Assembly (NCBI GenBank): GCA_963675755.2
Contig: CAXXMD010000003.1
Location: 192,001-256,000, forward strand
Direction of reading: 5' to 3'
DNA from: a bacterium
GTDB lineage: Bacteria > Zhuqueibacterota > Zhuqueibacteria > Residuimicrobiales > Krinioviventaceae
Length of the DNA stretch: 64,000 nt
Part shown: in pieces, positions 27,229 through 63,766 of the stretch
Layout: each line of letters opens with the position of its first letter
How positions within the stretch are numbered: position 1 is the stretch's first letter
The notes under the pieces: model-generated
The model's database searches: none
Seen by the model: only the letters and a program-made list of their open reading frames with translations
Told to the model about the DNA's origin: nothing
Made by a program: the position numbers and the translations under genes

Positions 27229-27308
27229 GTCTCTGTTTTGAAAAAAAAACAAAAATCCTTATATTGCCATGTAAGCGTGGTATAAACAAAATGTTAGCGG
27301 GTATGCTC

Positions 27309-30300: not shown

Positions 30301-33300
30301 GCGGAGAAACTTCCGTTAACGTATTAACCAACGCACAGGGAATTGCAAGCGCAACCGCAACCCTGGGATCAACAGCTGGTGATACAATCTATGTGTTCCA
30401 TGCTATTTCTCCGGGTGCATCTGGTTCACCGGTCATTTTTAAAGCATCTGCAACACCTGGCAGTGCGGCTAAACTCGCCGAAGTTACAAATACCAATTAT
30501 CAGTCAGGTCCGGTTAACAGAACGCTTGAAAATGATATTGCTGTATTGGTTACCGATGCCAGCGACAATCCGGTACCCGGATATACTGTAACCTTTACCG
30601 TATCCAAAGGCGGCGGCAAGGTAGAAGGAGCAACATATGCCAATGTAATATCCGATGAAAATGGAAAAGCATCGGCTGCATTCAAACTGGGAACAGCGGT
30701 TGGCGAAAATATAGCCATAGCCAGTGCGGATGCACTTGAAGGCTCTCCCATCACCTTTTTTGCAGATGGTGAAGCTTCTACCCCGGCACGTATCGACATT
30801 GTATCCGGTAACAATCAGTCCGGAAACCTGGGCCAGCAACTGGCACAACCCTTTGTTGTTGTTGTCCGGGATTCATTCTTTAATGCAATCAACAATCACA
30901 CTGTTCAATATTCTGTTACTGAAGGTGACGGAAACATTGAAGGTTTGACCGTTGCTAATAAACAAACCAATGAAATTGGTAGAACATCCGCGTATCTGAC
31001 TCTGGGCACAACTGCTTATACAAATATTGTACAGGTATCAGCATTTCAAAATGATAATCCGCTTATCAACAGTCCGGTTACATTTGTAGCATCTACAGGT
31101 CCTGGAGATCCCAAATATCTGGTTTACGAAAGCGGTAACAATCAGATTGGTCGGGTAAGCGCACAATTACCTTCACCATTCAAGGTCAAAGTTACGGATG
31201 AAAACGGTATACCTGTCAAAGGCCACGAAGTTCAGTTTATCAGCTATACTCCGGGTGCACATTTTTCTGGCAGCAATATGATAACTGCGCAAACGGATGC
31301 AAATGGTTTTGCTACAGCGACTCCAACATTGGGAAGCAATTATACCACATATGAATTTGAAGCGGTTGCAAAATTCAATAATGTATCTCTTGGCGGTTCT
31401 CCACTGGTATTCGAAGCCTATGGACGTAAAAGTACAGCAACCCAAATTGAGAATCTGTCTACTGGAACATTAACCGGCACAGCAGGATTAGTATTGGGTG
31501 ATTCATTGAAAATTCGCGTCAAAGATGGCAATGGTAATCCTGTTGCAAATCATCCGGTGGAATTTCAAATCACATCAGGCAGCGGCAGCTTTTTGAACGA
31601 TCATCACAGCAGCGTTTCCATAAATTCAAATTCAAGTGGTGTTGCAAGTGTTGCCGTAACACTGCGTCAAACTCCGGGAACAGTTACCATAACCGCAATA
31701 TCAGACAATGGACTTGCGGACGGAGACCTTGATGGCTCACCAATCAATTATACAATTACTGCCGTAACCGGTGTTCCCGATCCGGATAATTGTACGATTC
31801 AATCCACTGACAATGTGCTTGCTGATGGCCAAACCCCATCACAGATAACCGTTACGCTCAAAGATGCATTCGAGAATCCGGTTTCAGGAAAAACGGTTAT
31901 GCTTGAAAGCGCGGGTATTGAAGTAATTAAAACCCAACCCCAAACTACAACGAATACAAGCGGACAAACATCAGGTTCTATTGTTTCTGAAAATGTAGGT
32001 CAGGTTTATGTTTGGGCAGTTGTTGATGATCAAATCGTAAAAAGAGATACAATCACATTTGTTACTGGCAGCCCTGCAATCATAAGCACTATTGGCTCGG
32101 GTCAGTTTGCAGTAGCTGGCAAAACCCTAACCAATACAGTAGGTGTATGGGTACAGGATGAATACAATCATCCTATTCCCGGTGTTAACACTACATTTAC
32201 AGTTGTTGACGGTGGCGGATCCGTTACAGAAAGCCAACCCATAACCACAAACAGCGAAGGTAAAGCTCTGGTACATTGGCAATTGGGATCAGCAATTGGA
32301 TTACAACATCTGAATGCTGCAGTTGATGGTGTTGCAGAAACATATGAAATCACTGCAATTGCAACAGCACCCACTTTGGCAAATATTACCAAAGTTGCCG
32401 GTGATTCGGCAATTGGGCTTGTAAATCAGGAATACCAGTTCACCACAGCGGTTATCGATACAAATGACAACCCTATTGTAAATTACAATGTCAGTTTCGA
32501 ACTGTTGCTGGGAACCGGCGAAGGCCAGGGCAATTTTACAACCGCAACTACAGTTGCCACAAATAATGAAGGTAAAGCAACCGTAACCTTTGAATCTGGC
32601 ACATTGATAGGTCTGCATAAAATTAAAGCCACAGCAACCGATTATGGACATGTTGTTTTTGATTTTATTGTAGAAGAACAACGATCTATTACCATGGAAA
32701 AGCTGGAAGGTGACGGTAACACGGTAAGACCAAACACGGATATCGATCTTTCAGTTAAAATCACAAACGCTTTTAATCAGCCTGTTTCGGATGAAAGCAT
32801 AAAATTTCAGGTTGTTGAAGGCTTGGGAGTACTCAAAGATATCCAGCCTGTTGCCACCAGTGATAAAGGTATTGCATATTCTACCTGGAGCGTTTCTACA
32901 TTGGCCGGCACCCATAAAGTCAAGGTAACACCGGTTAATGCAGTTGGTGATTCCGTTAATTTCACCGCAATTGTTGTCAATGCTGCACCTGTACTCATGG
33001 ATATGCCTGCAACAGTGAATATCAACTGGGGTGAGATCTATGATATCACAATTACAGCTGAAGATCCTGATGAAGACAATGTTCATTTTGGTATAAGAGG
33101 TTTACCGCTCAACGCTGAATTTGATTCTACCGGAACCCAAAAGTTCACCTGGGAGCCCAGCGCAGCACAGGAAGGCGAACACGAGGTTACTTTTATTGCT
33201 GCTGATCCTTACGGTTTATCAGACAGCACCAAAGTCACTTTTAATATTATGGTTGAGAACCGTTGTCCGATTATCAGCAGTTTTGAACCGGCTGATACAA

Positions 33301-34109
33301 CCCGCTTTGATGTCGAACAGGATGACAACAGAATCGTCTTTAAAGTTTCAGCAATGGACCCGGATTATGATGTACTGACTTTTGAATGGCGAGTAAACGA
33401 TGTTTACAATGGTTCAGATACAACATTGACAGTTCCATTCAGCAAAGATTTCTTCCCCAGTCCGAACAATACGGTTCAGGTTTTGATTTCAGACGGATCG
33501 TGTCAAAAATCCATTACCTGGAAAGTGGTTTTAACCGCTATTGAACTCAACACATTTGAGGCAATTTCTCAAAAAGGCGGCATAGAACTGTTCTGGGAAA
33601 CTTCATCAGAAACACAAAATGCAGGTTTTTATATAATTCGCAGTACAATGGAGCAAGGTACCTATGAACGTATCAATACTGAAATCATCAGTCCATCTTT
33701 GAATGGTGAATACAGTTATGTGGATACAGAGGCAAAAGCAGGTATCACCTATTATTATAAATTGCAGGATATTGATATCTATGGTTCTTTGAACGAACAC
33801 GGACCGGTTACAGCCAAAGCGGCACTTCCGGATAAATTTGCACTTTCACAAAACTATCCAAATCCGTTCAACCCAAGCACCACTATCAGTTTTGAGCTGC
33901 CTGAACCAGCTGATGTCAAAATTGTGATTTTTAACACCAATGGTCAATTGGTAAAAACTCTGGTAGATTCTCGTCTTGAACCGGGCTATCATAACATTCT
34001 CTGGAATGCTAAAAATGACCAGGGAATCTCATTACCGTCTGGTATCTATTTTTACAAGATGCAGGCAAAAGATTTTACACTGGCCAAAAAACTTTTATTA
34101 TTGAAATAA
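27309..34109 (+). CDS. Giant secreted surface protein, tandem paralog of 20443..27228
   Basis: Same colinear architecture (PPTHT N-terminus, FG-GAP repeats, QHFGV, Big_1 repeats, AEDPD, WETSSE, QNYPNPFNP); start uncertain (27291, 27303 or 27309). Confidence 0.9.
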   Translation: MYKKTFRLFSVALVFLCASIATAQVPPTHTSVLYQDDLVSAGQKDIGYITNSNGSFQADGWKTTGPSSKLVVELNEFLPHEGTMQVKIKNLNPATQVNNDWSLMSLWSRSAGSWRDMNSTPGSYVLLKTEPDAQYISGGNVAWKLVETPFYGGDTGNPNAMNISNTTMQTWDATMEHTFKIIWNPQYLWIVIDGEMVKRKAYKDQIENFEYIFLGSDNEYGSMAGPTFTDLQILVPSSSYSFENVTKSADLASDMIFGEQGVSLVDLNNDGLDDIYLNYCNTADGIPNALYMNSNSQLFTEDAGSAGIDNTNCSNSSTFADFDGDGDIDLFIAKVNSPNKLYINNGSGVFSDQSTSRGISSLNYSTVNAMAIDIENDGDLDIFAVSSTQNHELYVNQGDGTFSLETRGTNNPTGAVMGAVAGDVNNDGFVDIFIAQRSAACGLLINDGTGNFSNEAASRNANQSIKANNPTMMDYDNDGDLDIFLAPSSTSTTPDPRVLVLKNNGNGVFTDISNTANINIEAYGLVSGDIDNDGYEDLYAVRSNRRDVVDDHSSRIYLNNGDDTFTALTGTGAEAIFSDGRAGIMMDYDNDGLLDLYGVSKGNLYNGSSYDTIDFGRNQLLKNTTETPNNWLKVVVNDIAGNPDGIGAKIWVYEAGRNFSNDYLIGYRDVYAMQGYTSQGSMTQHFGVGSNTQVDVKIQMPGEEAKTINNVVVNRTVEFNPSLVVPHHINVSGHDQTGIAGNTLANPLQVYVYAEDSTPAPGITVQFDVTAGGGTLDGNTETQIITTTDENGLAEVTWKMGTTAGQENTVRVTSSYNGSELEGSPFDASITPVAGDPAKLVKSSGDAQTGYILQFLDNPIIAQVTDAFNNPVAGHNVIFTISTGGGSVDQSGTSTFQVQTDQGGLAQVNWLLGETIGTQTLNATSTFDSNPLTNSPLSFSATGLAPQQKLQYQSGNYQTKLINSALDPFTVQVVDFTDAPISGEEIEFKVISGNGTFGGETSVNVLTNAQGIASATATLGSTAGDTIYVFHAISPGASGSPVIFKASATPGSAAKLAEVTNTNYQSGPVNRTLENDIAVLVTDASDNPVPGYTVTFTVSKGGGKVEGATYANVISDENGKASAAFKLGTAVGENIAIASADALEGSPITFFADGEASTPARIDIVSGNNQSGNLGQQLAQPFVVVVRDSFFNAINNHTVQYSVTEGDGNIEGLTVANKQTNEIGRTSAYLTLGTTAYTNIVQVSAFQNDNPLINSPVTFVASTGPGDPKYLVYESGNNQIGRVSAQLPSPFKVKVTDENGIPVKGHEVQFISYTPGAHFSGSNMITAQTDANGFATATPTLGSNYTTYEFEAVAKFNNVSLGGSPLVFEAYGRKSTATQIENLSTGTLTGTAGLVLGDSLKIRVKDGNGNPVANHPVEFQITSGSGSFLNDHHSSVSINSNSSGVASVAVTLRQTPGTVTITAISDNGLADGDLDGSPINYTITAVTGVPDPDNCTIQSTDNVLADGQTPSQITVTLKDAFENPVSGKTVMLESAGIEVIKTQPQTTTNTSGQTSGSIVSENVGQVYVWAVVDDQIVKRDTITFVTGSPAIISTIGSGQFAVAGKTLTNTVGVWVQDEYNHPIPGVNTTFTVVDGGGSVTESQPITTNSEGKALVHWQLGSAIGLQHLNAAVDGVAETYEITAIATAPTLANITKVAGDSAIGLVNQEYQFTTAVIDTNDNPIVNYNVSFELLLGTGEGQGNFTTATTVATNNEGKATVTFESGTLIGLHKIKATATDYGHVVFDFIVEEQRSITMEKLEGDGNTVRPNTDIDLSVKITNAFNQPVSDESIKFQVVEGLGVLKDIQPVATSDKGIAYSTWSVSTLAGTHKVKVTPVNAVGDSVNFTAIVVNAAPVLMDMPATVNINWGEIYDITITAEDPDEDNVHFGIRGLPLNAEFDSTGTQKFTWEPSAAQEGEHEVTFIAADPYGLSDSTKVTFNIMVENRCPIISSFEPADTTRFDVEQDDNRIVFKVSAMDPDYDVLTFEWRVNDVYNGSDTTLTVPFSKDFFPSPNNTVQVLISDGSCQKSITWKVVLTAIELNTFEAISQKGGIELFWETSSETQNAGFYIIRSTMEQGTYERINTEIISPSLNGEYSYVDTEAKAGITYYYKLQDIDIYGSLNEHGPVTAKAALPDKFALSQNYPNPFNPSTTISFELPEPADVKIVIFNTNGQLVKTLVDSRLEPGYHNILWNAKNDQGISLPSGIYFYKMQAKDFTLAKKLLLLK

Positions 34110-53871: not shown

Positions 53872-54402
53872 ATGAAAACCAATCAAATTGAAAACGGAAA
53901 ACCGTATATGAATCCCTACCTGGCAGGAACCCTGCTTGGGATCGTACTCTTTTTAGCGTTTTTTATCACAGGGAACGGATTGGGTGCATCCGGTGGAATT
54001 AACAGAATCTTACTCTATGTTGAAGACGCGGTAGCGCCTGCTCATGTAGACCATGTGCCCTATTTATTAAGCATGGCCGGTGGAGATAAAAATCCCCTGG
54101 ATCATTGGATCGTCTTTTTAACAATTGGCACCTTGATTGGAGGCTTTATCTCCGGCCTGATCCACAAACGGGTAAAATTGAAAACAGCCAAAGGCCCCAA
54201 TATTACCAACTGGCAGCGCTGGGTATTGGCGTTTGCGGGAGGTATATTTATGGGGTATGGCGCCAGAATGGCGCGAGGCTGTACTTCCGGTCAGGCACTC
54301 TCCGGAGGAGCGGTATTGTCTGCCGGAAGCTGGGCGTTCATGTTTGCGGTTTTTGCAGGTGGTTACGCGGTTGCATGGTTTGTTAGAAAAATCTGGAATT
54401 AA
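53872..54402 (+). CDS. YeeE/YedE sulfur-compound transporter (half-size)
   Basis: NPYLAG, GLGASG, GYGARMARGCTSGQALSG. Confidence 0.88.
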   Translation: MKTNQIENGKPYMNPYLAGTLLGIVLFLAFFITGNGLGASGGINRILLYVEDAVAPAHVDHVPYLLSMAGGDKNPLDHWIVFLTIGTLIGGFISGLIHKRVKLKTAKGPNITNWQRWVLAFAGGIFMGYGARMARGCTSGQALSGGAVLSAGSWAFMFAVFAGGYAVAWFVRKIWN

Positions 54403-54420
54403 AAAAGGACGGATAAAAAA

Positions 54421-55647
54421 ATGGCACCTTTCCCTATAGATGCAATTCTTGGTAAATTCGGAGCGTATCTGATCTACTTGTTGATCGGAGTTGGCTTTGG
54501 CTCTGTTTTAGAAATGGCAGGTTTTGCCCACTCGCCCAAACTTGCCGCTCAATTTTATTTCAAAGACATGACGGTACTAAAAGTCATGTTTACTGCAATT
54601 ATTGTTGCAATGACACTCATATTTCTCTCATCAGGCTTTATGATGCTCGACTTTGACAAGTTGTGGGTGAACCCTACCTACCTCTGGCCCGGCATTATAG
54701 GCGGATTGATTATGGGTGTAGGTTTTATAATTGGTGGATTTTGTCCCGGAACATCACTGGTTGCGTTAGCTACCTTGAGAGTAGACGGTTTCTTTTTTGT
54801 ACTGGGCGCAACCACAGGTATCTTTATTTTTGGTGAAACGGTAAGCAATTATACAGGTTTCTGGACATCTTCCTACCTGGGACGAATTATACTGCCAGAA
54901 GTCTTTCACGTTCATACTGGCGTAATTGTACTGCTCGTCATTCTCATGGCTCTCTTTATGTTTAAAGGTGGAGAGATGCTTGAAGCTGCTATTGGAAAGA
55001 AAACAATCACAAAATCAAAATGGAAAGTTGCAGGTGCCTCTGCCCTTGTTGTCTTGTCATTGTTGGGCATTGTGATTGGTCAACCTTCTGTACAGGACAA
55101 GTGGGAAATGGTCTCCAAAACCAAACAGGCACTTTTGGATGATCGCCAGGTACAAATTCATCCCGGTGAATTGCTTGACCTGATGTATGATGACAGCAAA
55201 AATCTGGTTTTGCTGGACGTACGGCCGGAAAAAGACTATAATATATTCCACATAAAAAACGCGAAAATGGTTGAATTAAATGAAATACCACAATACGCTT
55301 CAGAACTACTGCATGAACCAGCCAATACGGTAATTGTAACTATATGCAATAATGAAAAATTGTCTACTATTGCATGGCAGTGGTTAACCGCGCTAAACGT
55401 TCCCAATGTATATATTCTTGAAGGTGGCATTAACAACTGGCTTGATATTTTCGGGCATGAAGGTCATGAGAATTGTTATACCGTTAAAGACAAAGACGAT
55501 ACTTCTTTACGGCATATTTTCAACTCAGCATTAGGATCACGTTACGAAGCGGCAGAGCCGGAACCGGAACACCAGGAATCAAAACTGTTATTTGAACCCA
55601 AAGTAAAAATTGCCACCCAGGTAAGACGTCAAGGTGGTTGCGGATAA
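54421..55647 (+). CDS. YeeE/YedE transporter fused to a rhodanese domain
   Basis: GFGSVLE.AGF, FYFKDMTVLKVMF, GGFCPGTS; LLDVRP...FHIKNA, IVTIC, YILEGGINNW; C-terminal GGCG. Confidence 0.88.
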   Translation: MAPFPIDAILGKFGAYLIYLLIGVGFGSVLEMAGFAHSPKLAAQFYFKDMTVLKVMFTAIIVAMTLIFLSSGFMMLDFDKLWVNPTYLWPGIIGGLIMGVGFIIGGFCPGTSLVALATLRVDGFFFVLGATTGIFIFGETVSNYTGFWTSSYLGRIILPEVFHVHTGVIVLLVILMALFMFKGGEMLEAAIGKKTITKSKWKVAGASALVVLSLLGIVIGQPSVQDKWEMVSKTKQALLDDRQVQIHPGELLDLMYDDSKNLVLLDVRPEKDYNIFHIKNAKMVELNEIPQYASELLHEPANTVIVTICNNEKLSTIAWQWLTALNVPNVYILEGGINNWLDIFGHEGHENCYTVKDKDDTSLRHIFNSALGSRYEAAEPEPEHQESKLLFEPKVKIATQVRRQGGCG

Positions 55648-55677
55648 AAAAAAAGCCCTTTAAAAAGGGCTTTTTTT
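55646..55677. terminator. Bidirectional intrinsic terminator
   Basis: aaaaaaaagccctt-taaa-aagggctttttt between convergent genes. Confidence 0.85.
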
Positions 55678-56272
55678 ATTTCAAAGGTTGTACAGGAATT
55701 CCTCGCCTGAATACCCTGATTTTTCCATTATCAAAATTCAATTTTAATGATAAAAGCAGCATTTGTGCCAGAGGATCTTTATCTGCATTATACGCATTCA
55801 CCATAACACCAAAACGTACAGATTTCGATTGTCCCGATTCTATCAGCAAATTAACATCTGCCTGGGTATCAAAATTTTGTTCTGCTAATGATTTTATTAA
55901 CCGGGGATTTTGCTGAATTTCGCTTATGGATGGTTTTACAAGAAAAGCTTTGCTGGATAGATTAACATCCAGAATTTTTTGTCCCGCTAAAGGAATCAAA
56001 AATCCTGCACCATCAGAAATCTTTTCAATGGATTTTAAAGAAAAACTGGCTGGTCCCTGATTTGTGATGCTTGTTTCATATATGGCTAAAAATGCCCACG
56101 ATTGTGAAGCTTCATCGTAAACCGGTGTCATCAATGTGTTACGTTCTTCAAGTTCAATATCAGCAAGCGCCAATTGATAAGCCAGGTTTGCTTTTAACAA
56201 ACCCAGTACGGCAATACTCAGGGCTATAATAGCAATAGCGTATAATGTGATCGTTTTCCATTTCATCAACAA
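55676..56272 (-). CDS. Hypothetical protein with an N-terminal membrane anchor
   Basis: 198-aa ORF, GGAG RBS, hydrophobic N-terminus; no family recognised. Confidence 0.65.
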   Translation of the reverse strand: MLMKWKTITLYAIAIIALSIAVLGLLKANLAYQLALADIELEERNTLMTPVYDEASQSWAFLAIYETSITNQGPASFSLKSIEKISDGAGFLIPLAGQKILDVNLSSKAFLVKPSISEIQQNPRLIKSLAEQNFDTQADVNLLIESGQSKSVRFGVMVNAYNADKDPLAQMLLLSLKLNFDNGKIRVFRRGIPVQPLK

Positions 56273-56320: not shown

Positions 56321-57148
56321 CTATTTTATTAATAATATTTTATGAACTGCAAACATCTGCCCCAAATTGACGCGCACATAATACACACCGGATGGAACAG
56401 AATTCCCGTCCATATCAACACCAGACCATAAATATTCATACGAACCCATTTCAAGCTTTCCAAAATTATGAAACGAAATCCTTTTACTTGAAACATCATA
56501 AATTTCAAGATGTACATTTTCACTTTTAGAAATATCAAAATGTATCCGCGTTGAACTGTTGAAAGGATTTGGATAGTTCCTGACAACCAGATTCTGGCTA
56601 ACCGGATATTCCGGTTCTTTAATTTTTGTATCGATATTCCGTACAACTGCACGGAGGAGAAAATCAAGATCTTCTCTCAGCCACCAGCTTCAGCAGTCGG
56701 TATCGTAAGAATGTAGACTTATGGGTTCCTGATCATCAACACCAATTGCAAAAAAGCTGTTCGGGTTTTGTGATAGAACAAAAAAGAAATCATTATCAAC
56801 ATTGATATCCAAAGCACTGAGATCATATTCATTCCATCCGACATGCCCACCAGATATTACAAACGGATCAACGAGATCATTTCCATCCCAGGGTTTACCA
56901 TCCAAATCAGCAGGTAATATTGACAACTTGAATGCCGTAGTCTCATTTACTTCGGGCATATAATATTTAATTTTTATCAATTTTGCGGGATATTGGGACG
57001 GAGAGAATTTTGTAACGACATATATACCATTTTGTCCCATAATAAATGAATCATGAGCAATGCCATCGTCATAATAAAGCTCTTCATCTGCAAAAGAAAT
57101 TGAAAAAAGAGTTAAAACCAACAGACACATCAAAAAAACTTTGTTCAT
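56321..57148 (-). CDS. Secreted CTD-bearing protein with an in-frame TGA at codon 153 (candidate selenoprotein, or nonsense-split gene)
   Basis: GAGGA RBS; signal peptide MNKVFLMCLLVLTLFSISFA; ...HSYDTDC-TGA(56690-56692)-SWWLREDLDFLLRAVV... stays in frame through RNYPNPFN...WSGVDMDGNSVPSGVYY...KILLIK to TAG at 56321-56323. Confidence 0.8.
56654..56678 (-). promoter_or_regulatory. Hairpin 11 nt downstream of the in-frame UGA (SECIS candidate)
   Basis: GAGAGAAGAUCUUGAUUUUCUCCUC: 8-bp stem GAGAAGAU/AUUUUCUC closing a CUUG loop. Confidence 0.45.
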
Positions 57149-57180: not shown

Positions 57181-57208
57181 ACCAAAGGCCCCATAAGGGG
57201 CCTTTGGT
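57181..57208 (-). terminator. Stem-loop terminator after the PorV-family gene
   Basis: accaaaggcccc-ataa-ggggcctttggt followed on the minus strand by gttttt. Confidence 0.8.
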
Positions 57209-57234: not shown

Positions 57235-58254
57235 TTATTTCATATAGATGCTCCAGGAGATTCTGTGTACAGAGCCAAAAAACTCGCCAAAGTCACCATA
57301 GGAGTAATCAAATTTTACACCATAGTTACCCAAGGGTTTGTTGACACCAACACCAAAGGTCAATCCTTCTTCATCATAATTGAATTTGTAACCACCGCGC
57401 AGGAACAGCATATTACTCATACCATATTCAGCACCAAGGTGAATACGTTCAGAGTAATCTCTGGGGTGAATTGCATCTACTGCAACTGTCAGTTTATGCA
57501 TATCACTGTCTGCAAACAAGGTCATTACATCCATTGCCATACCAATATTGAACATCAAAGGCAATTCAAAACGTTCAAACACATAACGACCCTGGCGGGA
57601 AAAGTTGCGGATTGACATAGCAACGCGCAAATCTTTCCAACCTGTGTAATACAGGGTACCAAAATCAAATGCATTTACAGTTTGTTCATTTTGTACAACG
57701 GTTTCACCATAGACTTCATGCAAGATCAAGCTTTCATACAAGTCCTGTTTAACCATTTTTATCTGGGCACCGATTGAAAATTGGTTGCTGATACGACGAC
57801 CATAAGATAATCCTACAGCATATTCGCCAACTTCAAAGTCACCAAGGTCTTCATAACCTTGGTTTCTCAGTATAGGATCAGAACCATCATACGGACGTGT
57901 TTCTGTCATTGTACCATAGTCCATATAGATCAAGCTAACACCAAAAGTACCCCAGTTTTTAAAACCGTAAGCAACACCACCGGCATAATGTTTAATGTCG
58001 GCAATCCAATTGGTTTGGTTCATTGCAACTTCAAAGCCATCAACAAAAGCGAGACCAGCCAGATTCGAAAACATGGATGTGGCATCATCAGTAACGGCTG
58101 CACTGGCACTACCCATTGCAGAAGCACGACCACCTACATCAATTTTTAAGAACGGCATACCCGTTTGACCTAATTTATCAATAGCTTGTGACGCAGGACT
58201 AAGTCCCAATATTAATAGCGCCGTCACCAGCAAATAAAAAACAGTTTTTTTCAT
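57235..58254 (-). CDS. PorV/PorQ-family outer-membrane beta-barrel protein
   Basis: Signal peptide; FLKIDVGGRASAMGSA, SMFSNLAGLA, WIADI, HLGAEY, FLRGGYKFNYD, FDYSY, VHRIS. Confidence 0.87.
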   Translation of the reverse strand: MKKTVFYLLVTALLILGLSPASQAIDKLGQTGMPFLKIDVGGRASAMGSASAAVTDDATSMFSNLAGLAFVDGFEVAMNQTNWIADIKHYAGGVAYGFKNWGTFGVSLIYMDYGTMTETRPYDGSDPILRNQGYEDLGDFEVGEYAVGLSYGRRISNQFSIGAQIKMVKQDLYESLILHEVYGETVVQNEQTVNAFDFGTLYYTGWKDLRVAMSIRNFSRQGRYVFERFELPLMFNIGMAMDVMTLFADSDMHKLTVAVDAIHPRDYSERIHLGAEYGMSNMLFLRGGYKFNYDEEGLTFGVGVNKPLGNYGVKFDYSYGDFGEFFGSVHRISWSIYMK

Positions 58255-58290: not shown

Positions 58291-60348
58291 TTATTTAACC
58301 ACTACAAATTTTCCAATTGCAGTTTCACCCGTTGGGCTGCCTTGAGGACCATCTAATTCTTCAACAACAAACAGATAGATACCGCTCACAATTCTCATTG
58401 AAGAGAAAGTGTCCTGACGGGTCCATTCTTCGTCACCTGTTCCTTCGTTATGATACAGAGTCTGTACCAGGTCACCTGTCATTGTGTAGATGTGGATATT
58501 ACAATAAGCAGGTGTATTGAGGAATTTAATTTGATCTTCTTCATATTTGTAGCGGGAAAGGGCATTAAAAGGATTCGGTACAACAACTACATTGTCTTTC
58601 CAGTTTGCATCCGGTGAACGTGTCGGTGCAACAGCTTCATCAACTCGATTATCTCCGGATTTCAACTGACCGGAACGGTTCAGCAGCATACTGCTTTCGG
58701 TTCCATCAGTGGTATACGCGGTTACATAATACCAATAGTTTTGTCCGCGGATTACATCCGTATCAACATAACTATGAGTTGACGCATTAACATCTGCAAG
58801 CAGTACAAATGTTGTATCAGTTGGTATAGCCAATTCCGCTGGGCGGTAATAGTTACGATAGATCTTGTATCCGGCAAGACCCGGGAACCCATCAGCTTCT
58901 GTGCCCCAATCAATTTCAATTTGATCAGGAACTGAAGTTAATGTTAATGAAGGAGATGGTGGTGTAGCAGGAACCATCAACTCACCAGTACCCCTGAATA
59001 CGTCGCTGTTTTCCCAGATTCTTTTCAACATTCCGGCCTTTTTAAAAACAGAATCTTTACCGGTATCAATGATCATGTCTTTTTGTACCTGGCTCAGAAA
59101 ACTTCCTTGAACTCCAAGATCCATTACATCATAAGGCATTTCAACATTAAGCTGACTAGAGTATCCGGCTTTATAAGCACGACCGGCATCAATAGCCAGA
59201 CGGTGGTTAATAGAGCCACCAATGTAAGCAACTACAATACGCACATCTTCACCTGGAGCCATCTGGTAAGGACCAAAATGGAATGAACCGGGTTTTGCCT
59301 GTTCTTCAACAGGATTACTAACATGTGCTACCCAACTGCCGATCAAGCTGCGATACATACCGCTTTCATCAGTCTGCAGACTGGGGTTAGCTGTATTCCA
59401 GGGGCCAGACATGAATTCATAAATCTCGTCATGGGTTGCTTCACTCAATGAAGGAAGTAACTCACGCTGTGACCAACCCGCTTTATGCGGTTGTGCAGGA
59501 TCATCAGTATCATCGGTAGTGCTTTTATCCGCATGAAGTACCTGCATACCCATATATTGTGGTTTTTCAAAGTTACCCCAGATCAGATCAGGGTTGGCTT
59601 TGTCATCTTCAGGAATTTCAGGTTCGTCTGCTTCCCACATGTAGTAGAGACGCAGTGAATCTTGACCACTTGCATAACCAGCGCCATAGTAATCTGACCA
59701 CAAGTTACCGGGATAGTGATCACCTGTCATCATTTCAGTAACGATACTGAAATAAACATCAGTTTTAGCTTCGTTAGATGCGTTTTCAAAAACCCATTCA
59801 TAAACAACAAAGTCATCATATTCTTGATTGGCACACGCGTAAACCCAACGTTCTACATCAATACCGGTCCAGGTATTCCACTTGCCATAGACCATACCGT
59901 CTGCAGGAATTGATTCGTCAACAGGGTCGGTTTTGTACTGTGCATCAGTCCAGTCACGGCCATCAATCATTCTGATAGGTGGCGCATATTTAAAAACACG
60001 TTTAAAAGCACCGCTTACGGGCACAATTACGTTTTCAATTTCAGTAAATTTGCTTTGTATACCCTGGGCAATTTTATGTTCCCAAGGTACACCATTACCA
60101 TCTGTCCAACTCATTTTAACGCCAACATTGATACCGTTAACAGATGATACTTCTCTGGCATCACTATCAAGATTATTATTCCAGGTTTGGGGGTATTGCA
60201 TTGACATTGCACTGATCGTCTCCCCCGGTGTCACCTGGATATCACCGAATCTCAACTGTCTGGTAGACGACTGACCCAATAGTGTTGAATTTATGAGCAA
60301 CAGCAGAACAAGAACAAATAATCCGCCGTACTTGAAAAGTTTTTTCAT
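58291..60348 (-). CDS. Secreted protein with Fn3-like module and a variant T9SS-type CTD
   Basis: Signal peptide; PPSPSL...GYKIYR...YVDTDV..GQNYWYYVTAY; VVVVPNPF...IKFLN.P...IHIYTMTGDLVQTL...SGIYLFVVE...GKFVVVK. Confidence 0.8.
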   Translation of the reverse strand: MKKLFKYGGLFVLVLLLLINSTLLGQSSTRQLRFGDIQVTPGETISAMSMQYPQTWNNNLDSDAREVSSVNGINVGVKMSWTDGNGVPWEHKIAQGIQSKFTEIENVIVPVSGAFKRVFKYAPPIRMIDGRDWTDAQYKTDPVDESIPADGMVYGKWNTWTGIDVERWVYACANQEYDDFVVYEWVFENASNEAKTDVYFSIVTEMMTGDHYPGNLWSDYYGAGYASGQDSLRLYYMWEADEPEIPEDDKANPDLIWGNFEKPQYMGMQVLHADKSTTDDTDDPAQPHKAGWSQRELLPSLSEATHDEIYEFMSGPWNTANPSLQTDESGMYRSLIGSWVAHVSNPVEEQAKPGSFHFGPYQMAPGEDVRIVVAYIGGSINHRLAIDAGRAYKAGYSSQLNVEMPYDVMDLGVQGSFLSQVQKDMIIDTGKDSVFKKAGMLKRIWENSDVFRGTGELMVPATPPSPSLTLTSVPDQIEIDWGTEADGFPGLAGYKIYRNYYRPAELAIPTDTTFVLLADVNASTHSYVDTDVIRGQNYWYYVTAYTTDGTESSMLLNRSGQLKSGDNRVDEAVAPTRSPDANWKDNVVVVPNPFNALSRYKYEEDQIKFLNTPAYCNIHIYTMTGDLVQTLYHNEGTGDEEWTRQDTFSSMRIVSGIYLFVVEELDGPQGSPTGETAIGKFVVVK

Positions 60349-60412: not shown

Positions 60413-63400
60413 TCAATAGAAATTAATTTTGATACCGAAAAAGATATCACGTTTTTCCAGGAATGTCCATGGAGTAAACGACGGCATTACGATATAATCT
60501 TTACCGTTGCTGTCTGTTGGGTAATCTCCGGGACGATCTCCACCTTCAATGTCCAATGAATTCATATATGCTCTGAATTCACCGTTCCACCATTTGTGAT
60601 CGTTCCATGCCCAGTTTCCATTAACACCTGTGAGAACTCTGTTATCACCATAAGAATAATCATCTGGATAAGTCATATTCTTGTTATTAAATACGTTAAA
60701 AACGTCTACGTAAAATACGGTTTCCATGCCCCATTTATGGAACAGACGTTTGGTGAAACGCATATCTGTTCTTTGGTAGGGACGCCAGCGGATATTATCT
60801 TCTACGTATGGAATACCTTTGGGATTCCAGGTGAATACTTCACCTGCACGCCAATAGTACAAGAAATTCAGGTTCATGTCAGCAAAAACCGGGTAACCTG
60901 CAAGTCTGTAACCAAAATCTGCTGGTGTATGAAAATCTACATTAACTTTCCAAACCGGACGAGCAACCGGTTGGGTAATATCTGTGTTCCACAATGTGTT
61001 ACCACTGTTGGGATCTTCACGGTAATACTGAGTACCGTAACGACCGCGACTTGAGATCATGTATTCATAACTGGTAAAACCAGTTACAAATGTACCACGA
61101 CGCAGCTCGGCCATCAATTCAACACCGCGAATATCGCGATACTGGTTGTTTTCCGGGAAACGTACATCCGAACCTTCCATAGGATAGTAACGGATTTCGT
61201 TATATTCATCAGACACATCTTTGTAATAACCGGTAGCGGTCAACTGGAACATGTCCATTAAATTATGAGCATAACCCACTTCGTACATGATGGTTTTGGG
61301 AGGTACTAAACTGGGGTTACCCAGATTTGAAATTCTCCAGCCATCTGTTGTACGTTGGCGATAATAGTACAAATCATACGCACTGGGCCATTTGTAAAAG
61401 TGGCCATAGTTGAAAAAGATTTTTGCGTCGTTTGAAATAGGATGAGAAATACCAACACGCGGGCTAATACGCGCCTGAGTAATGCCTTCCCAATTCAACA
61501 TATCCAGACTGTCAGACTTGCCTGCCTGCAGAAATCTGGAATAGGGAGATGCATCAGGATCATCTACATCTGTATTATTGATCATATCACCGCGTTTTTG
61601 AACGTCTAAACGCAAACCCAGGTTAGCAATCATACCCTGGAATTCAAGTTTATCTTGAACAAACAAAGCGCCTGACCATGGTTTTGCTTTGGCAAAGTAC
61701 CAGCTACCACCATTTACGGAGGGATCGATTTCGCCATATTCACCATGAATTTTATCATGCTGCAATTCAATACCGGCTTTGATCTGGTTAAAACGGTTAA
61801 CCTGACTGGTAATAGCAGCTTTTAATACATATTTACGGAAAATAGAATTGTTTTCACGCAAGTTACAAGATTCCATACGGTATTCACCGGTTACATCACG
61901 CCAGTTCACAGGACCATAGCCCCATGGACCTTCATCATACCAGTATTTACCAATCTTGACACGTGCGTAATTCTGCCAGTTTTCCCAATCATAATCACCA
62001 TTGTCAATATGTTCCTGGATTTCATCAGCAGTACCTAAACGGCCATACTGTAAATGGGTTGCACCCCATTCATTACCCTGGATTTTAACTGTGTTACGAT
62101 GATACATATCGTGACCTTCTTCAGTCAGCAAGTGGCTGAATGTAACTTCATAAAATGTTGAAGGAGACAATACATGGGTGAACTGGAAGCCCATTGAAAC
62201 ACGTTCCTGAACAGCGGTAACGTTACAGTAGGGATACCACATTTTGTTAGCGCTAGACATACTATTGGGAACATCGCTTTCAAAACCAGAGCTGTTGCTT
62301 GAGAAGGGGTTATTGGTAATTTCAATACCAATACCACCACCCTGGCCACCACTGGTACCTGATTGCTTACCATATAAAAAGTTGAGATTCAACTTCATGG
62401 ATTCACTCAGGTTTGTGGTCAGCTTGAGGTTAGTTAAGCGATCACGATAATAGTCTTGTGGATAAGTACGTGCGTAATAGGTTTTTTCTTCTCTATGTGA
62501 AACAAAGAATTTCATGTCATTATAGAATGGAATAGGTCCGCCAAATGTAAAGGAACCGACAAAATCACCTTCATCACCATATTCGTATACGTCATCTTCA
62601 TCGGGATCAATACCGGTAACATCGGCATTTACTTTACCTTGTTCTGCAAGGCTTAACAACAATTCCAAATTATCTTTAGATCTGTGGCGCCACAAGTACA
62701 GTGCCAAATTTTCATAAGGTTCACCATAGTGAGGATCACCAGGCTGCAGGGTACCATTGGTTCCCAAAACCCATTTGGAAGAGTCCCACCAGTTAGACAG
62801 TTCACTACCGTTTGCGTCAACGGGAATACCATTTGCGCTCACTTCAACACCTGAATATTTGAACCAACCGGGGAAAAACTGACTTGCTGTACCAACTTCA
62901 CCCATACCACCTTCACGGTAATATCCGGTCCACGCACCGTCTTTGGCATAAAGAAAAGGGCGAACCAGGGGAGAATCTTTACCATAGATCATGGGGCCAA
63001 AATGTTTTACGGCAGCTGGGCTGTATTTAAAATCAATACTTCCGGTATAACGATCGCCACCTTCTTTGGTAACAACATTGATCAAGCCTGAACGAACATT
63101 ACCATATTCAGCATTGAAACCACCGGTGATAACCTGAATTTCCTGCACTGCGTCCATGTTAATTTTCATGTATGGACGGTTACGGATTTCATCTGTCATT
63201 GCCATACCATCGGTGATCATTGCACCATTGGTATAATCCTGACCGCGGAAACGCGGGTGAGATGCGTTAGCACCAAAACCGGAAATACCAACCTGCGCAT
63301 GCATAACATTTGCAAGGTCTTTGTATGCAGCATTTTCAAGTTGTTCGGGGGAAATAATTTGTTGGGTGCTGGAAACATCGAGGGGAACAATTGCGCGTTC

Positions 63401-63766
63401 GGCAACTACTGTAACTTCCTGAGAAGCTTCCAGAACTTTTTCTTCGAGTTTAAAATCTGCGACCGTTGTGCGGTCAACGTTTACACCTACTCCTGTAAGT
63501 TTAAGAGGTGTGTAACCGATCATTGTAGCGGTTAATGCATATTGTCCGGGACGAACATTGATGATAAAATAATAACCATCAAGATCTGTTGCAGCACCCA
63601 TCTGGGTACCTTCAATCACAACATTAACGCCAGGGAGTGGCTCCCCTGTTTTTGCGTCTGTTACTCTACCTGATATTTTACCGGTTGTTGCCGAAAAACC
63701 CGTACCGGCAATTAACAGGCCTAGTATAAATACACAGGCGAGTTTAAATATTACACTTCTCTGCAT
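60413..63766 (-). CDS. TonB-dependent outer-membrane receptor with N-terminal carboxypeptidase-regulatory-like domain
   Basis: GKISGRVTDAKTGEPLPGVNV, TDLDGYYFI, plug motif TGGFNAEYGNVRSGLINVVTKEG, SPRVGISHPI, YEVGY, aromatic C-terminus; AAGGAGG RBS. Confidence 0.93.
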   Translation of the reverse strand: MQRSVIFKLACVFILGLLIAGTGFSATTGKISGRVTDAKTGEPLPGVNVVIEGTQMGAATDLDGYYFIINVRPGQYALTATMIGYTPLKLTGVGVNVDRTTVADFKLEEKVLEASQEVTVVAERAIVPLDVSSTQQIISPEQLENAAYKDLANVMHAQVGISGFGANASHPRFRGQDYTNGAMITDGMAMTDEIRNRPYMKINMDAVQEIQVITGGFNAEYGNVRSGLINVVTKEGGDRYTGSIDFKYSPAAVKHFGPMIYGKDSPLVRPFLYAKDGAWTGYYREGGMGEVGTASQFFPGWFKYSGVEVSANGIPVDANGSELSNWWDSSKWVLGTNGTLQPGDPHYGEPYENLALYLWRHRSKDNLELLLSLAEQGKVNADVTGIDPDEDDVYEYGDEGDFVGSFTFGGPIPFYNDMKFFVSHREEKTYYARTYPQDYYRDRLTNLKLTTNLSESMKLNLNFLYGKQSGTSGGQGGGIGIEITNNPFSSNSSGFESDVPNSMSSANKMWYPYCNVTAVQERVSMGFQFTHVLSPSTFYEVTFSHLLTEEGHDMYHRNTVKIQGNEWGATHLQYGRLGTADEIQEHIDNGDYDWENWQNYARVKIGKYWYDEGPWGYGPVNWRDVTGEYRMESCNLRENNSIFRKYVLKAAITSQVNRFNQIKAGIELQHDKIHGEYGEIDPSVNGGSWYFAKAKPWSGALFVQDKLEFQGMIANLGLRLDVQKRGDMINNTDVDDPDASPYSRFLQAGKSDSLDMLNWEGITQARISPRVGISHPISNDAKIFFNYGHFYKWPSAYDLYYYRQRTTDGWRISNLGNPSLVPPKTIMYEVGYAHNLMDMFQLTATGYYKDVSDEYNEIRYYPMEGSDVRFPENNQYRDIRGVELMAELRRGTFVTGFTSYEYMISSRGRYGTQYYREDPNSGNTLWNTDITQPVARPVWKVNVDFHTPADFGYRLAGYPVFADMNLNFLYYWRAGEVFTWNPKGIPYVEDNIRWRPYQRTDMRFTKRLFHKWGMETVFYVDVFNVFNNKNMTYPDDYSYGDNRVLTGVNGNWAWNDHKWWNGEFRAYMNSLDIEGGDRPGDYPTDSNGKDYIVMPSFTPWTFLEKRDIFFGIKINFY

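Follow-up and report, generated by a model that had tools for sequence, protein, structure and literature searches.

A gene on the reverse strand of the window, the whole 64,000-nucleotide stretch of bacterial DNA that was analysed, contains a single in-frame TGA codon and very probably encodes a true selenoprotein, recoded by hairpins downstream of the TGA and carrying a type IX secretion system (T9SS) sorting domain. The reading of this gene as a T9SS-type exported selenoprotein was put forward in an original prediction from the DNA letters, and it is supported by a homolog column that holds TGA or Cys, by RNA structure that accompanies the TGA form only, and by the selenocysteine (Sec) genes of the genome. 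The features of the gene and its neighbourhood are listed in Table 1.

Table 1. Features of the selenoprotein gene and of the genes upstream of it (window coordinates).
Feature	Positions	Strand	Basis or remark
Selenoprotein gene	56321..57148	-	275 codons plus TAG; the single in-frame TGA is codon 153
Putative signal peptide, residues 1-20 (MNKVFLMCLLVLTLFSISFA, then DEE)	57089..57148	-	Sequence reading
Lectin-like beta jelly-roll domain, residues 21-172, spanning the TGA	56633..57088	-	Structure model
TGC, Cys152, immediately 5' of the Sec codon	56693..56695	-	Sequence
TGA, probably read as selenocysteine, residue 153	56690..56692	-	Conserved TGA/Cys column, 13 shortened representatives, Sec machinery
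Hairpin 1, 8 bp, loop CUUG, 13 nt after the UGA	56657..56676	-	Proposed SECIS spacer/helper
Hairpin 2, 7 bp, loop AGUU	56638..56655	-	Proposed SelB-binding part of the SECIS
T9SS type A C-terminal sorting domain, residues 192-271	56336..56575	-	PF18962, TIGR04183, PF13860
Terminator-like hairpin, 12 bp, 8 G-C, then a T run	57181..57208	-	Consensus scan only
PorV/PorQ-family outer-membrane protein gene, directly upstream	57235..58254	-	NF033709, 203.7 bits (cut-off 90)
685-aa protein of no curated family	58291..60348	-	Conserved cluster member
SusC-like TonB-dependent receptor (CarboxypepD_reg, Plug, barrel)	60413..63766	-	First gene of the conserved cluster

Reading frame and genomic context of the TGA codon

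The frame opens with an ATG at 57148 and closes with a TAG stop at 56323-56321, giving a product of 275 aa when TGA is read as U. As predicted, the only in-frame TGA (56692-56690) directly follows a TGC codon and is succeeded by 122 sense codons, and no ATG lies between it and the sorting domain; GTG and TTG are absent from this interval too, and the next start in frame is an ATG at 56449. The translation shows Cys152 to be the sole Cys of the mature protein. TGA is an ordinary stop elsewhere, ending four of the 31 long open reading frames in the window, including those at 5487 and 53865 that had been named as examples, and a genome-wide code change with TGA as a sense codon was rejected on this ground.

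Among 283 sorting-domain matches genome-wide, only the window gene has a long open frame 5' of an in-frame TGA, with 200 codons vs 64 in the next best. Screening for TGA codons flanked on either side by an open frame returned 551 candidates, a Cys being close by in 143, and these are noise except for selD and the window gene. The TGA is retained in assembled contigs of public runs: positions 56690-56692 are unchanged in contigs from two runs of a single sample and in those of a relative from another study. Being assemblies, these contigs show presence only.

Conservation of the TGA/Cys column

Orthologs with the same architecture and length are present in eight genomes. TGA occupies one alignment column in nine distinct sequences, from eight genomes of the phylum and a metagenome contig (L085), at identities that span 34-88%, and because all the relatives belong to one phylum these sequences are not independent. 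The TGA form accounts for six of the 11 matches among 61 relatives and occurs in eight of the 167 genomes of the phylum. Five homologs carry Cys at this column within the motif D-C-C-G-W (G011, G044, G049, G076 and a paralog in G001), and none carries Gly or Trp, the residues that the original prediction had named as evidence against it.

A search of 1.84 billion cluster representatives yields, within the best 150, 13 proteins of 148-175 aa whose C-terminus falls immediately before the TGA column, each standing for a separate cluster at 50% identity, and seven domain rows with Cys-Cys at the column. One of the public shortened forms carries the name 'hypothetical protein'. The vicinal Cys-Sec motif of the original prediction is borne out by nine of the 13 shortened clusters, which end in ..DC, but not by the other four (..DG in two, ..GA in one and ..ST in one), in which Gly, Ala or Thr precedes the TGA. 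The residue before the TGA is Cys in all ten rows of alignment A1; G123 has Ala at this place and G063 has Thr. Since a Cys before the Sec is not universal, a vicinal Cys-Sec redox pair is not the sole possible chemistry.

The pattern Y-D-x-D-C-TGA-S-W was found in metagenome DNA on two contigs, one of which is near-identical to G054. A Cys-Cys-based pattern search of genome contigs, which could detect Cys forms only, returned two loci, both duplicating sequences already in the set. In each of the nine TGA sequences the frame beyond the TGA stays open, contains no indels and can still be identified as a sorting domain, and third-position changes after the TGA are over-represented (16 of 32 and 39 of 76). 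Codon differences that change the amino acid outnumber synonymous ones after the TGA (17 vs 12 and 31 vs 25), whereas synonymous differences prevail before it (20 vs 27 and 30 vs 50).

Selenocysteine machinery in the genome and in relatives

The window itself is without sel genes, as had been cautioned, but the genome encodes selA (580.2 bits), selB (371.2 bits) and selD (376.7 bits), all over their cut-offs, together with a tRNA-Sec that scores 68.1 bits, also over its cut-off, and is called by ARAGORN as SeC(tca). The selD gene of the source genome itself has an in-frame TGA, and its SECIS is the only other one available for comparison in the genome; the formate dehydrogenase alpha model TIGR01553 has no match there. 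Among the genomes holding a family member, selA is present in 11 of 11 and selB in ten of 11. For genomes with the TGA form the corresponding counts are seven of seven and six of seven, and the one lacking selB is 73% complete.

Conserved RNA structure downstream of the TGA

RNAalifold on the nine Sec-form sequences predicts two adjacent hairpins after the TGA, which are present in nine of nine Sec forms and absent from five Cys forms and six Cys-less forms, and the stretch after the TGA is thus a conserved structured RNA in TGA forms only. Hairpin cells are paired at 94.1%, vs 43.7-55.6% with the partners slid, and the observed pairing or covariation score is reached by none of 500 shuffles. 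Only four of the 15 pairs have changed on both sides, a count that 41 of 500 shuffles reach, and the folding of the whole 57-nt stretch is modest (z -2.41; six of 200 shuffles fold as well).

The original prediction described one stem-loop, starting 11 nt after the TGA at 56678-56654. This hairpin (hairpin 1) exists, but it occupies 56676-56657 and starts 13 nt after the codon. It is 88.9% paired over the nine sequences, with two pairs changed on both sides, is weak on its own (-5.4 kcal/mol, z -1.24) and has its loop 21 nt from the UGA. The missing early G that had been raised as a caveat is indeed missing from the loop of this hairpin in most sequences, and when the loop is taken as the 6-nt loop of RNAalifold an early G is found in three of nine. 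Hairpin 2, which had been overlooked, is 100% paired, with seven of seven pairs in nine of nine Sec forms, one of them being U-A in three, C-G in three, G-C in two and U-G in one, and it folds at -9.2 kcal/mol (z -5.64; none of 200 shuffles as good). At its columns, two to five of the seven pairs can form in the five Cys forms and two to six in the six Cys-less forms, where the six pairs of L068 arise by chance. The loop of hairpin 2 is AGUU in eight sequences and GGUC in one ortholog. Hairpin 2, and not the CUUG hairpin, carries the SelB-type loop and is the predicted SelB site, which removes the caveat on the missing early G.

In the published bacterial SECIS (bSECIS) model, the loop has 3-9 nt, the upper stem 4-16 bp and the fold an energy of at most -7.5 kcal/mol (PMC13188914, Fig. 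2 legend); one of the first two loop nucleotides is a G, usually with G or U next to it on the 3' side, and the apical loop is 16-37 nt from the UGA (PMC13188914). Neither hairpin fully fits this model (PMC13188914, section 5). Hairpin 2 agrees with it in loop size, stem, energy (4 nt, 7 bp, -9.2 kcal/mol) and early loop G, but the 41 nt between the UGA and its loop (44 nt in G123 and G063) exceed the 16-37 nt spacing, while hairpin 1, at 21 nt, departs from the loop rule. The best hairpin loop of selD in the source genome is 38 nt after its own UGA, suggesting that long spacing is usual in this genome. An Rfam search of 56560-56760 at E up to 10 matched no SECIS family and returned chance-level hits to DnaX (E 0.34) and sR51 (E 8.8).

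Domain architecture and export

The N-terminus is hydrophobic, with SFA and then DEE in the translation, and in the full-length model the putative signal peptide forms a helix at residues 3-14 with low pLDDT, detached from the domains. The domain that spans the TGA is modelled as a jelly roll with a pLDDT of 94.1 and a pTM of 0.89. Its best structural match is the lectin-like domain of Cwp84 (4ci7_A; Z 16.3, rmsd 2.4, 145 of 159 residues), the next entries having Z scores of 13.4 and 13.2, and Foldseek on the same model found 4ci7_B at E 4.3e-5. In the model, Cys152 and Sec153 sit in a four-residue hairpin turn (D-C-U-S) between two strands, and a 152-residue product would be without the last strand of the domain.

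The family had not been recognised in the original prediction, and at the level of sequence this stands: residues 1-190 have no Pfam match at E up to 1, including to the jelly rolls of DUF4082 (PF13313) and InhA-like MAM domains, and no NCBIfam family covers the N-domain. Its fold, by contrast, is identifiable as a lectin-like jelly roll. One distant relative (P0026) matches DUF4082 over the corresponding domain, and a remote relation is possible. The fold of the N-domain is widespread, without Cys, in large secreted proteins, and relatives of the domain are appended to peptidases of the S8, C10 and M10 families.

The sorting domain predicted after the TGA scores above the curated cut-offs of PF18962 (30.8 bits, cut-off 27) and TIGR04183 (31.8 bits, cut-off 23), and scores 36.6 bits for PF13860. 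Such domains also occur, in keeping with the prediction, on three other window proteins at 19794-20072, 26950-27207 and 33843-34106 (contig coordinates C3:211794-212072, 218950-219207 and 225843-226106). The T9SS core genes covered by the search are present in the genome, namely SprA (518.3 bits), PorU (884.4 and 877.3 bits) and the PorV/PorQ family (203.7 bits).

Gene neighbourhood

The selenoprotein gene follows three genes in a cluster that is conserved in its own genome, G001, G034, G036, G123, G063 and G054. Orthologs of the receptor (41-97% identity) and of the 685-aa protein (46-98% identity) occupy corresponding positions in six other genomes, and the PorV/PorQ-family gene lies immediately 5' of the Sec form in eight of eight loci with an upstream flank; in L085, too, a PorV-like gene is upstream. 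The 685-aa protein has no Pfam, NCBIfam or PDB sequence match and falls into unnamed clusters only in the protein atlas. The receptor of the cluster is without an in-frame TGA and scores 21.8 bits with the NCBIfam model NF049946, vs a cut-off of 700. Downstream of the PorV-like gene and ahead of the selenoprotein gene, a consensus scan marks a terminator-like hairpin.

Around the four-gene core, the flanking genes vary by genome, comprising DHDPS and LacI, GH28, FecCD/ABC, or YeeE, and thus indicate no single substrate. In G123, genes for Peripla_BP_2, an ABC ATPase and a FecCD permease lie directly downstream. In G076 the gene immediately before the Cys form combines LVIVD repeats with an Ig-like domain, a redoxin domain and a T9SS sorting domain, and this redoxin domain reads W-U-P-M-C, with an in-frame TGA at the first active-site position. 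A search of the source genome with the redoxin and sorting domain of G076 was dominated by sorting-domain matches and is uninformative on a redoxin homolog.

Proposed mechanism and alternative explanations

It is proposed that SelB and tRNA-Sec insert selenocysteine at UGA codon 153, and that the recoding signal is a coding-region SECIS of two adjacent hairpins. Hairpin 2 (loop A/G-G-U-U/C) would be the likely SelB site, and hairpin 1 may serve as a compact spacer that brings hairpin 2 near the ribosome despite the distance of 41 nt. With its putative signal peptide and its sorting domain, the protein would be expected to pass the inner membrane through the Sec translocon, then the outer membrane through the type IX system, and so to reach the cell surface. 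If the UGA were read as a stop, the product would be without the last domain strand and without the sorting signal, and surface display would consequently depend on selenium. At the surface, the selenoprotein may work with the SusC-like receptor, the 685-aa protein and the barrel of the PorV/PorQ family, its selenol, usually paired with the adjacent thiol, capturing a thiophilic ligand for TonB-dependent uptake. Candidate ligands are soft metals, metal chelates and chalcogen species. This function in thiophilic-ligand capture together with the three preceding genes is advanced tentatively, as a reading that may well prove wrong. It is favoured by the FecCD/ABC/Peripla_BP_2 genes downstream in G123, by C152 being the only Cys of the mature protein, by the four of 13 Sec clusters in which the lack of a preceding Cys precludes an internal selenenylsulfide, by the published proposal that CU motifs of transport proteins bind heavy metals and by the NCBIfam model NF049946 for a CU motif-type receptor; the variable flanks of the core name no single substrate for it, and the redoxin selenoprotein beside the Cys form in G076 argues against it by pointing to redox chemistry.

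That redox chemistry could reside in the same selenoprotein if the Cys-Sec pair were a catalytic centre on the cell surface, closing to an eight-membered selenenylsulfide ring as in the C-terminus of animal thioredoxin reductase, performing thiol/disulfide or chalcogen exchange and being recycled by a surface redoxin. The two adjacent Cys in seven of seven Cys-type domain rows, the Cys before Sec in nine of 13 Sec clusters and the adjoining LVIVD-redoxin(W-U-P-M-C)-sorting-domain gene of G076 are consistent with such a centre, as is the predominance of redox enzymes among known selenoproteins (PMC13188914, section 7). It is nonetheless judged rather unlikely, given that the four Sec clusters with Gly, Ala or Thr before the Sec can form no internal selenenylsulfide, that the full-length product of G123 is without a Cys to resolve one, that the mature window protein has no Cys besides C152, that the fold is a lectin-like binding module and not a thioredoxin fold, and that a redoxin neighbour occurs in one of the 12 loci examined. 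Furthermore, we know of no electron donor outside the outer membrane, which also counts against a redox centre.

Two further explanations dispense with Sec altogether. The UGA could be read through or recoded without Sec insertion, for instance by a near-cognate Trp or Cys tRNA stimulated by the hairpins, to give a selenium-free product, and the departure of the hairpins from what the standard bacterial SECIS model requires of spacing or loop, as well as the lack of a SECIS match in Rfam, would agree with this. Such readthrough is very improbable, however, because the TGA-form genomes have selA (seven of seven) and selB (six of seven, with the 73% complete exception), the column alternates with Cys only, which is the signature of Sec/Cys exchange, the A/G-G-U-U/C loop of hairpin 2 fits the SelB-type loop rule, and the 38-nt spacing in selD makes long spacing seem usual. 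Least probable is a TGA that acts as a real stop through nonsense mutation, pseudogene formation or assembly error, leaving a decaying downstream frame and a 152-residue fragment or nothing as the product. Gene callers do end the gene there, public collections hold the shortened forms (152-175 aa) and constraint is weaker after the TGA than before; against this, the TGA is kept in nine distinct sequences down to 34% identity with the downstream frame open, 13 clusters at 50% identity end at the TGA column, the contigs of two runs and the relative from a second study are unchanged at 56690-56692, and the fragment would be without the last strand of its domain.

Significance and comparison with known systems

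Most of the bacterial selenoproteins known so far are redox enzymes of the cytoplasm or periplasm. According to the 2026 catalogue of selenoprotein families, the majority of those characterised adopt a thioredoxin-like fold, and the present family is absent from the 119 families of that catalogue, a comparison that did not extend to Tables S2 of BSepDB (PMC13326102) and deep-Sep (PMC12013277). A literature search found no T9SS cargo with selenocysteine in print. It is reasonably probable that this is the first selenoprotein family exported by T9SS to the surface, with a lectin-like Sec turn serving a TonB-dependent uptake complex. If so, an outer-membrane function would be gated by selenium, since without Sec translation ends before the sorting signal, and selenium supply and uptake function would form a testable link. 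A Sec-bearing lectin-like module at the surface, linked to a TonB-dependent receptor, would carry selenium biology beyond the outer membrane, and G076 would provide another exported example with its LVIVD-redoxin(UxxC)-sorting-domain gene. SECIS elements would also be conserved, and perhaps functional, beyond the 16-37 nt window of predictors, which bears on the completeness of selenoproteome catalogues: a tandem-hairpin SECIS lies outside the standard search window, and exported selenoproteins may have been missed systematically in candidate phyla of the FCB group. The annotation of 'hypothetical proteins' stored publicly as fragments of 150-175 aa would be corrected.

The protein resembles T9SS type A cargo (TIGR04183/PF18962) in its putative signal peptide and in a sorting domain over the cut-offs, and SprA, PorU and a PorV/PorQ-family protein are encoded in the genome. 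A PorV-family protein and a sorting domain are a textbook pair. With the Cwp84 domain of Clostridioides difficile (PDB 4ci7) it shares the fold and the role of an accessory module of a secreted or surface protein; that domain is only 11% identical, has no Cys-Sec or Cys-Cys loop and no T9SS-type sorting domain, and the shared fold does not imply shared function. Like animal thioredoxin reductase, the protein has a vicinal Cys-Sec able to close to a selenenylsulfide. The reductase bears its Gly-Cys-Sec-Gly C-terminus on the flexible tail of a flavoenzyme that reduces it, whereas the pair described here lies in a turn inside a beta-sandwich, is predicted to be outside the cell and has no flavoprotein partner in view.

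The RNA is akin to the E. coli fdhF-type element and the bSECIS model in having a coding-region hairpin after the UGA with a small loop of G then U and, in hairpin 2, a 7-bp stem and an energy below -7.5 kcal/mol. It differs in that two hairpins stand in tandem, the G-U loop is 41-44 nt from the UGA and the hairpin whose spacing is canonical (21 nt) varies in its loop, in most sequences without an early G.

Haft and Gwadz (bioRxiv 10.1101/2022.07.06.499078) have proposed that the CU motifs of transport proteins serve as ligands for heavy metals. The SaoB, SaoC, SaoL, HgcA and MerT-type proteins described there have adjacent Cys-Sec, CC in non-Sec homologs and database entries truncated at the CU site, as here, and some are located outside the cytoplasm and linked to importers, with a thiophilic metal ligand proposed. 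They have no sequence or fold relation to the window protein, which combines a lectin-like jelly roll with a T9SS sorting domain, belongs to a diderm, is encoded beside a TonB-dependent receptor and not an ABC system, and is missing the Cys in four of 13 Sec clusters. An NCBIfam scan of the readthrough product gave sorting-domain and FlgD-type matches only, with no CU-motif family (SaoB, SaoL, HgcA, TonB_dep_CU). Further parallels are NF049945, a TonB-dependent receptor selenoprotein of the FCYXU motif-type (PMC13188914, Table 1), and NF049946, the 'TonB-dependent receptor, CU motif-type' model of NCBIfam, which likewise place selenocysteine in outer-membrane uptake machinery, one of them with a CU motif; there, however, the Sec is in the receptor, whereas here it would reside in a separate secreted protein.

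Reading frame across the TGA

The fourth gene of a conserved cluster in the window very probably encodes a true selenoprotein, with a tandem-hairpin SECIS as the predicted recoding signal and the type IX secretion system (T9SS) as the predicted export route. Its ATG is preceded by GAGAGGA, and the ORF ends at a TGA directly after the TGC codon of Cys152. Re-reading and translation confirmed that, as originally predicted, the same frame continues for 122 sense codons to a TAG, giving a 275-residue product. The part beyond the TGA passes the curated cut-offs of two sorting-domain models (PF18962, 30.8 bits against 27; TIGR04183, 31.8 bits against 23), so the complete sorting domain claimed there is borne out, and a T9SS-type C-terminal sorting domain does end three other window proteins. 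The reported absence of an in-frame ATG between the TGA and this domain also stands and extends to GTG and TTG. TGA is a normal stop codon in this DNA, as had been stated, and terminates 4 of the 31 long ORFs in the window.

As a control for chance, all 283 sorting-domain matches in the genome were scanned for an upstream in-frame TGA before the next TAA or TAG. Some such TGA was present in 75 of the 283, and only the studied gene has a long open frame before it (200 codons; next best, 64), with the TGA 38 residues from the sorting domain. The observation is therefore real and not a chance open frame.

Positions of the features described (window coordinates unless another genome or locus is named)
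Feature	Position	Strand	Description
Cluster gene 1	60413-63766	-	SusC-like TonB-dependent receptor, CarboxypepD_reg and Plug domains
Cluster gene 2			685-aa protein, no curated family
Cluster gene 3			PorV/PorQ-family protein (NF033709, 203.7 bits)
Cluster gene 4	57148..56321	-	Predicted selenoprotein gene
In-frame TGA	56692-56690	-	Candidate Sec153
Terminal TAG	56323-56321	-	End of read-through frame
Hairpin 1	56676-56657	-	8 bp, loop CUUG, starts 13 nt after codon
Hairpin 2	56655-56638	-	7 bp, loop AGUU
Palindrome	56600-56616		Perfect, 7 bp, AACCGGATATTCCGGTT
Terminator-like hairpin	57181-57208	-	12 bp, 8 G-C, T run
198-aa ORF	55676-56272	-	No family, directly downstream of gene 4
Flank, window	53872-55647	+	Two YeeE/YedE-type sulphur-transport genes, second fused to rhodanese; converge on cluster
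Flank, G123			Peripla_BP_2, ABC ATPase, FecCD
Flank, G034			DHDPS-family and LacI genes; DHDPS-family gene also in G036 and L085
Flank, G063			GH28 gene
Giant ORFs	20443-27228 and 27264-34109	+	Adjacent, 2261 and 2281 aa
selD	G000:C3:1425405-1426334 (L001)		In the window's genome, outside the window
Second G001 copy	G001:C1:2356538-2356915 (L052, L095)		Cys-Cys form
G076 frame	L094:1954-4023	+	689 codons
G076 in-frame TGA	L094:3391	+	First redoxin active-site position

Conservation of the TGA column

Searched with the N-terminal 185 residues, 61 related genomes yielded 11 matches, spread over 10 of them; six matches contain exactly one TGA. A profile search of 167 genomes of the phylum found the TGA form in eight, and a DNA pattern search added one distinct metagenome contig (L085). 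The TGA falls in a single alignment column in all nine translated sequences, within the motif Y-D-[TS]-D-C-U-S-W in seven of these Sec forms, G-A-U-G-D-W in genome G123 and C-Y-C-T-U-T-G-W in genome G063; the TGA orthologs share 34-88% identity with the window's protein. Five homologs carry Cys at this column, in the motif D-C-C-G-W (in G011, G044, G049, G076 and a second copy in the same-genus genome G001), so that the homolog alignment proposed as a check on the original prediction returns TGA or Cys. TGA alternating with Cys alone across such wide divergence is the classical signature of a selenoprotein family. The second G001 copy is at another chromosomal site, away from the receptor cluster, and in the window's genome the Sec copy is the only one.

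With E up to 0.001, the profile matched 1368 of 1.84 billion cluster representatives. In the top 150, 13 proteins of 148-175 residues terminate exactly before the column (ending in ..DC in 9, ..DG in 2, ..GA in 1 and ..ST in 1), 7 domain rows have Cys-Cys and 149 rows have no Cys there. One shortened form is named 'hypothetical protein [candidate division KSB1 bacterium]' in NCBI nr, indicating that public annotation does not recognise it.

Tandem hairpins after the UGA

Every Sec form has two adjacent hairpins 3' of the TGA, both predicted by RNAalifold on the nine Sec sequences. The stem-loop originally placed at 56678-56654, 11 nt from the codon, is present as hairpin 1, with its position and spacing revised. 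In the two-hairpin structure assigned to these sequences 94.1% of cells are paired, a share that drops to 43.7-55.6% once the 3' partners are shifted by 1-3 columns. None of 500 column shuffles gave as much pairing, as many doubly changed cells (9) or as high a covariation score; the covariation is based on nine sequences, and all compared sequences are from one phylum. The count of pairs altered on both sides (4 of 15) is a weaker result, equalled by 41 of 500 shuffles. All cells of hairpin 2 are paired, and one pair, which links an Arg codon to a Val codon at their third positions, occurs as U-A (3), C-G (3), G-C (2) and U-G (1). In G063 an A-U pair of hairpin 1 is replaced by G-C at the cost of two amino-acid changes (R to W, L to P). 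None of the five Cys forms and six Cys-less forms folds into either hairpin at the homologous codons: the Cys forms retain 0-5 of 8 pairs at hairpin 1 and 2-5 of 7 at hairpin 2, and the Cys-less forms 2-6 of 8 and 2-6 of 7, the highest non-Sec value at hairpin 2 (6 of 7) belonging to one Cys-less form. The Cys-less set includes L065, from a genome marked as unpublished (G162), and the result is unchanged for the other five without it.

[quoted passage not shown] Hairpin 2 (loop AGUU or GGUC, -9.2 kcal/mol, z -5.64) agrees with these rules in everything except spacing, its loop lying 41 nt from the UGA (44 nt in G123 and G063). The loop of hairpin 1, at 21 nt, falls within the spacing range; in most sequences it has no early G, and this hairpin by itself is weak (-5.4 kcal/mol, z -1.24). 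The earlier caveat that the CUUG loop lacks an early G thus applies to hairpin 1 and not to hairpin 2. The strongest downstream hairpin of selD in the same genome has a GGA loop 38 nt after the UGA, beyond the usual window, suggesting that such distances may be the norm in this lineage. Rfam gave no SECIS match for the hairpin region. SelB would bind hairpin 2, and hairpin 1 may act as a conserved compact spacer.

Fold and predicted export

Residues 1-20 look like a signal peptide, and residues 21-172 are modelled with high confidence as a beta jelly roll (pLDDT 94.1, pTM 0.89; alignment of 41 sequences), followed by a short linker and the sorting domain. The best solved structural match is the Cwp84 lectin-like domain (4ci7_A; Z 16.3, rmsd 2.4 over 145 residues; Foldseek E 4.3e-5), followed by phage baseplate and capsid decoration modules, PHR domains and carbohydrate-binding modules. 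D-C-U-S forms a four-residue turn joining two strands in the predicted model, and the mature protein has no Cys besides C152. In the wider domain family the equivalent turn is D-F-[DN]-G-x-x-W, and large secreted proteins (S8, C10 and M10 peptidases, NosD-like, BNR), many with a sorting domain of their own, carry the domain as an accessory module. The Cys-Sec or Cys-Cys turn is thus derived, and confined to a small subfamily whose members stand alone. The linker-coding palindrome matches the DnaX frameshift element at chance level (E 0.34) and is also called terminator-like on the opposite strand; the E-P-E-Y-P peptide it encodes occurs, among the aligned proteins, in the window and G001 only.

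The genome encodes SprA, two PorU and very many T9SS cargo proteins. A stop at the UGA would leave a product without the last strand of the domain and without the sorting signal, and surface export should thus depend on Sec insertion. The 283 sorting-domain matches amount to an unusually large T9SS secretome, and both giant ORFs in the window end in T9SS sorting domains.

Gene cluster

The same-strand, four-gene order is shared by G001, G034, G036, G123, G063 and G054, and L085 also has a PorV-like gene directly upstream. With the window included, the PorV-like gene directly precedes the Sec form in all eight loci that have an upstream flank; among the five Cys forms, G076 alone is found in a cluster of this kind. 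The cluster flanks differ from genome to genome, and the YeeE/YedE adjacency is common only to the window and the same-genus genome. Neither of the two YeeE/YedE-type window genes, the rhodanese fusion included, has an in-frame TGA; according to Table 1 of PMC13188914, both families include selenoproteins in other organisms. The cluster's receptor scores 21.8 bits against NF049946 ('TonB-dependent receptor, CU motif-type'; cut-off 700) and is not a member; the faint match does show that NCBIfam has a curated model for receptors with a Cys-Sec motif of their own. A strong terminator-like hairpin separates the PorV-like gene from the selenoprotein gene, which may have its own transcript or rely on terminator read-through. 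The downstream 198-aa ORF is 93% identical in G001; its homolog in G034 (40%) follows a second TonB-dependent receptor, a paralog, at the same locus.

In G076, the frame preceding the Cys form encodes LVIVD repeats, an Ig-like domain, a redoxin/AhpC-TSA domain with the active site W-U-P-M-C, and a T9SS sorting domain. This frame overlaps the Cys form, which directly follows, by 1 nt and looks like a candidate second T9SS-exported selenoprotein gene.

Rival readings, Sec machinery and proposed function

The evidence leaves practically no room for a pseudogene or an assembly error. The TGA is matched by assembled contigs of public runs, these being assemblies that probably include the source sample. 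Constraint is weaker downstream of the TGA (amino-acid-changing to synonymous codon differences, 17 to 12 and 31 to 25) than upstream (20 to 27 and 30 to 50); third codon positions downstream are still the most variable, with zero indels. Sec-independent read-through of the UGA is unlikely. The window's genome (6.48 Mb, 3 contigs) has the full Sec machinery for which a search had been suggested: selA (580.2 bits), selB (371.2 bits), selD (376.7 bits), itself a selenoprotein gene with an in-frame TGA (motif C-A-G-U-A-S-K), and tRNA-Sec (68.1 bits; called SeC, anticodon tca, by ARAGORN). Among genomes with a Sec or Cys form, selA is present in 11 of 11 and selB in 10 of 11, the selB-less genome being 73% complete.

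As to function, the protein could, at somewhat under even chances, serve the adjacent TonB-dependent receptor by capturing a thiophilic ligand at the cell surface. This is suggested by the invariable cluster with that receptor, the presence of a FecCD-type importer in G123, a fold of the binding-module kind, Sec forms with no partner Cys, and precedents in CU motifs of transport proteins, for which Haft and Gwadz (bioRxiv 10.1101/2022.07.06.499078) propose heavy-metal ligation, and in TonB-dependent receptor selenoproteins (NF049945, listed in PMC13188914, Table 1; NF049946, NCBIfam). The main rival, a surface redox centre, is consistent with the Cys-Cys pair strictly kept in the Cys forms and with the redoxin neighbour in G076, and is the more doubtful of the two.

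Comparison with known selenoproteins

The read-through product matches no NCBIfam selenoprotein model, and none of the 119 families and subfamilies in Table 1 of the 2026 review (PMC13188914) is described there as a T9SS cargo or lectin-like module. The text passages compared from deep-Sep and BSepDB mention no such family, and a full-text literature search, judged largely by title and abstract, found among the papers listed no work joining selenoproteins or selenocysteine with type IX secretion or T9SS. A KSB1 genomics paper, in the passages compared, reports selA, selB and selD in the phylum and names no selenoproteins. Recoding follows the known bacterial mechanism. What is rated as new is the selenoprotein family, together with its route of export and the fold in which Sec is placed, and the geometry of its SECIS is atypical.
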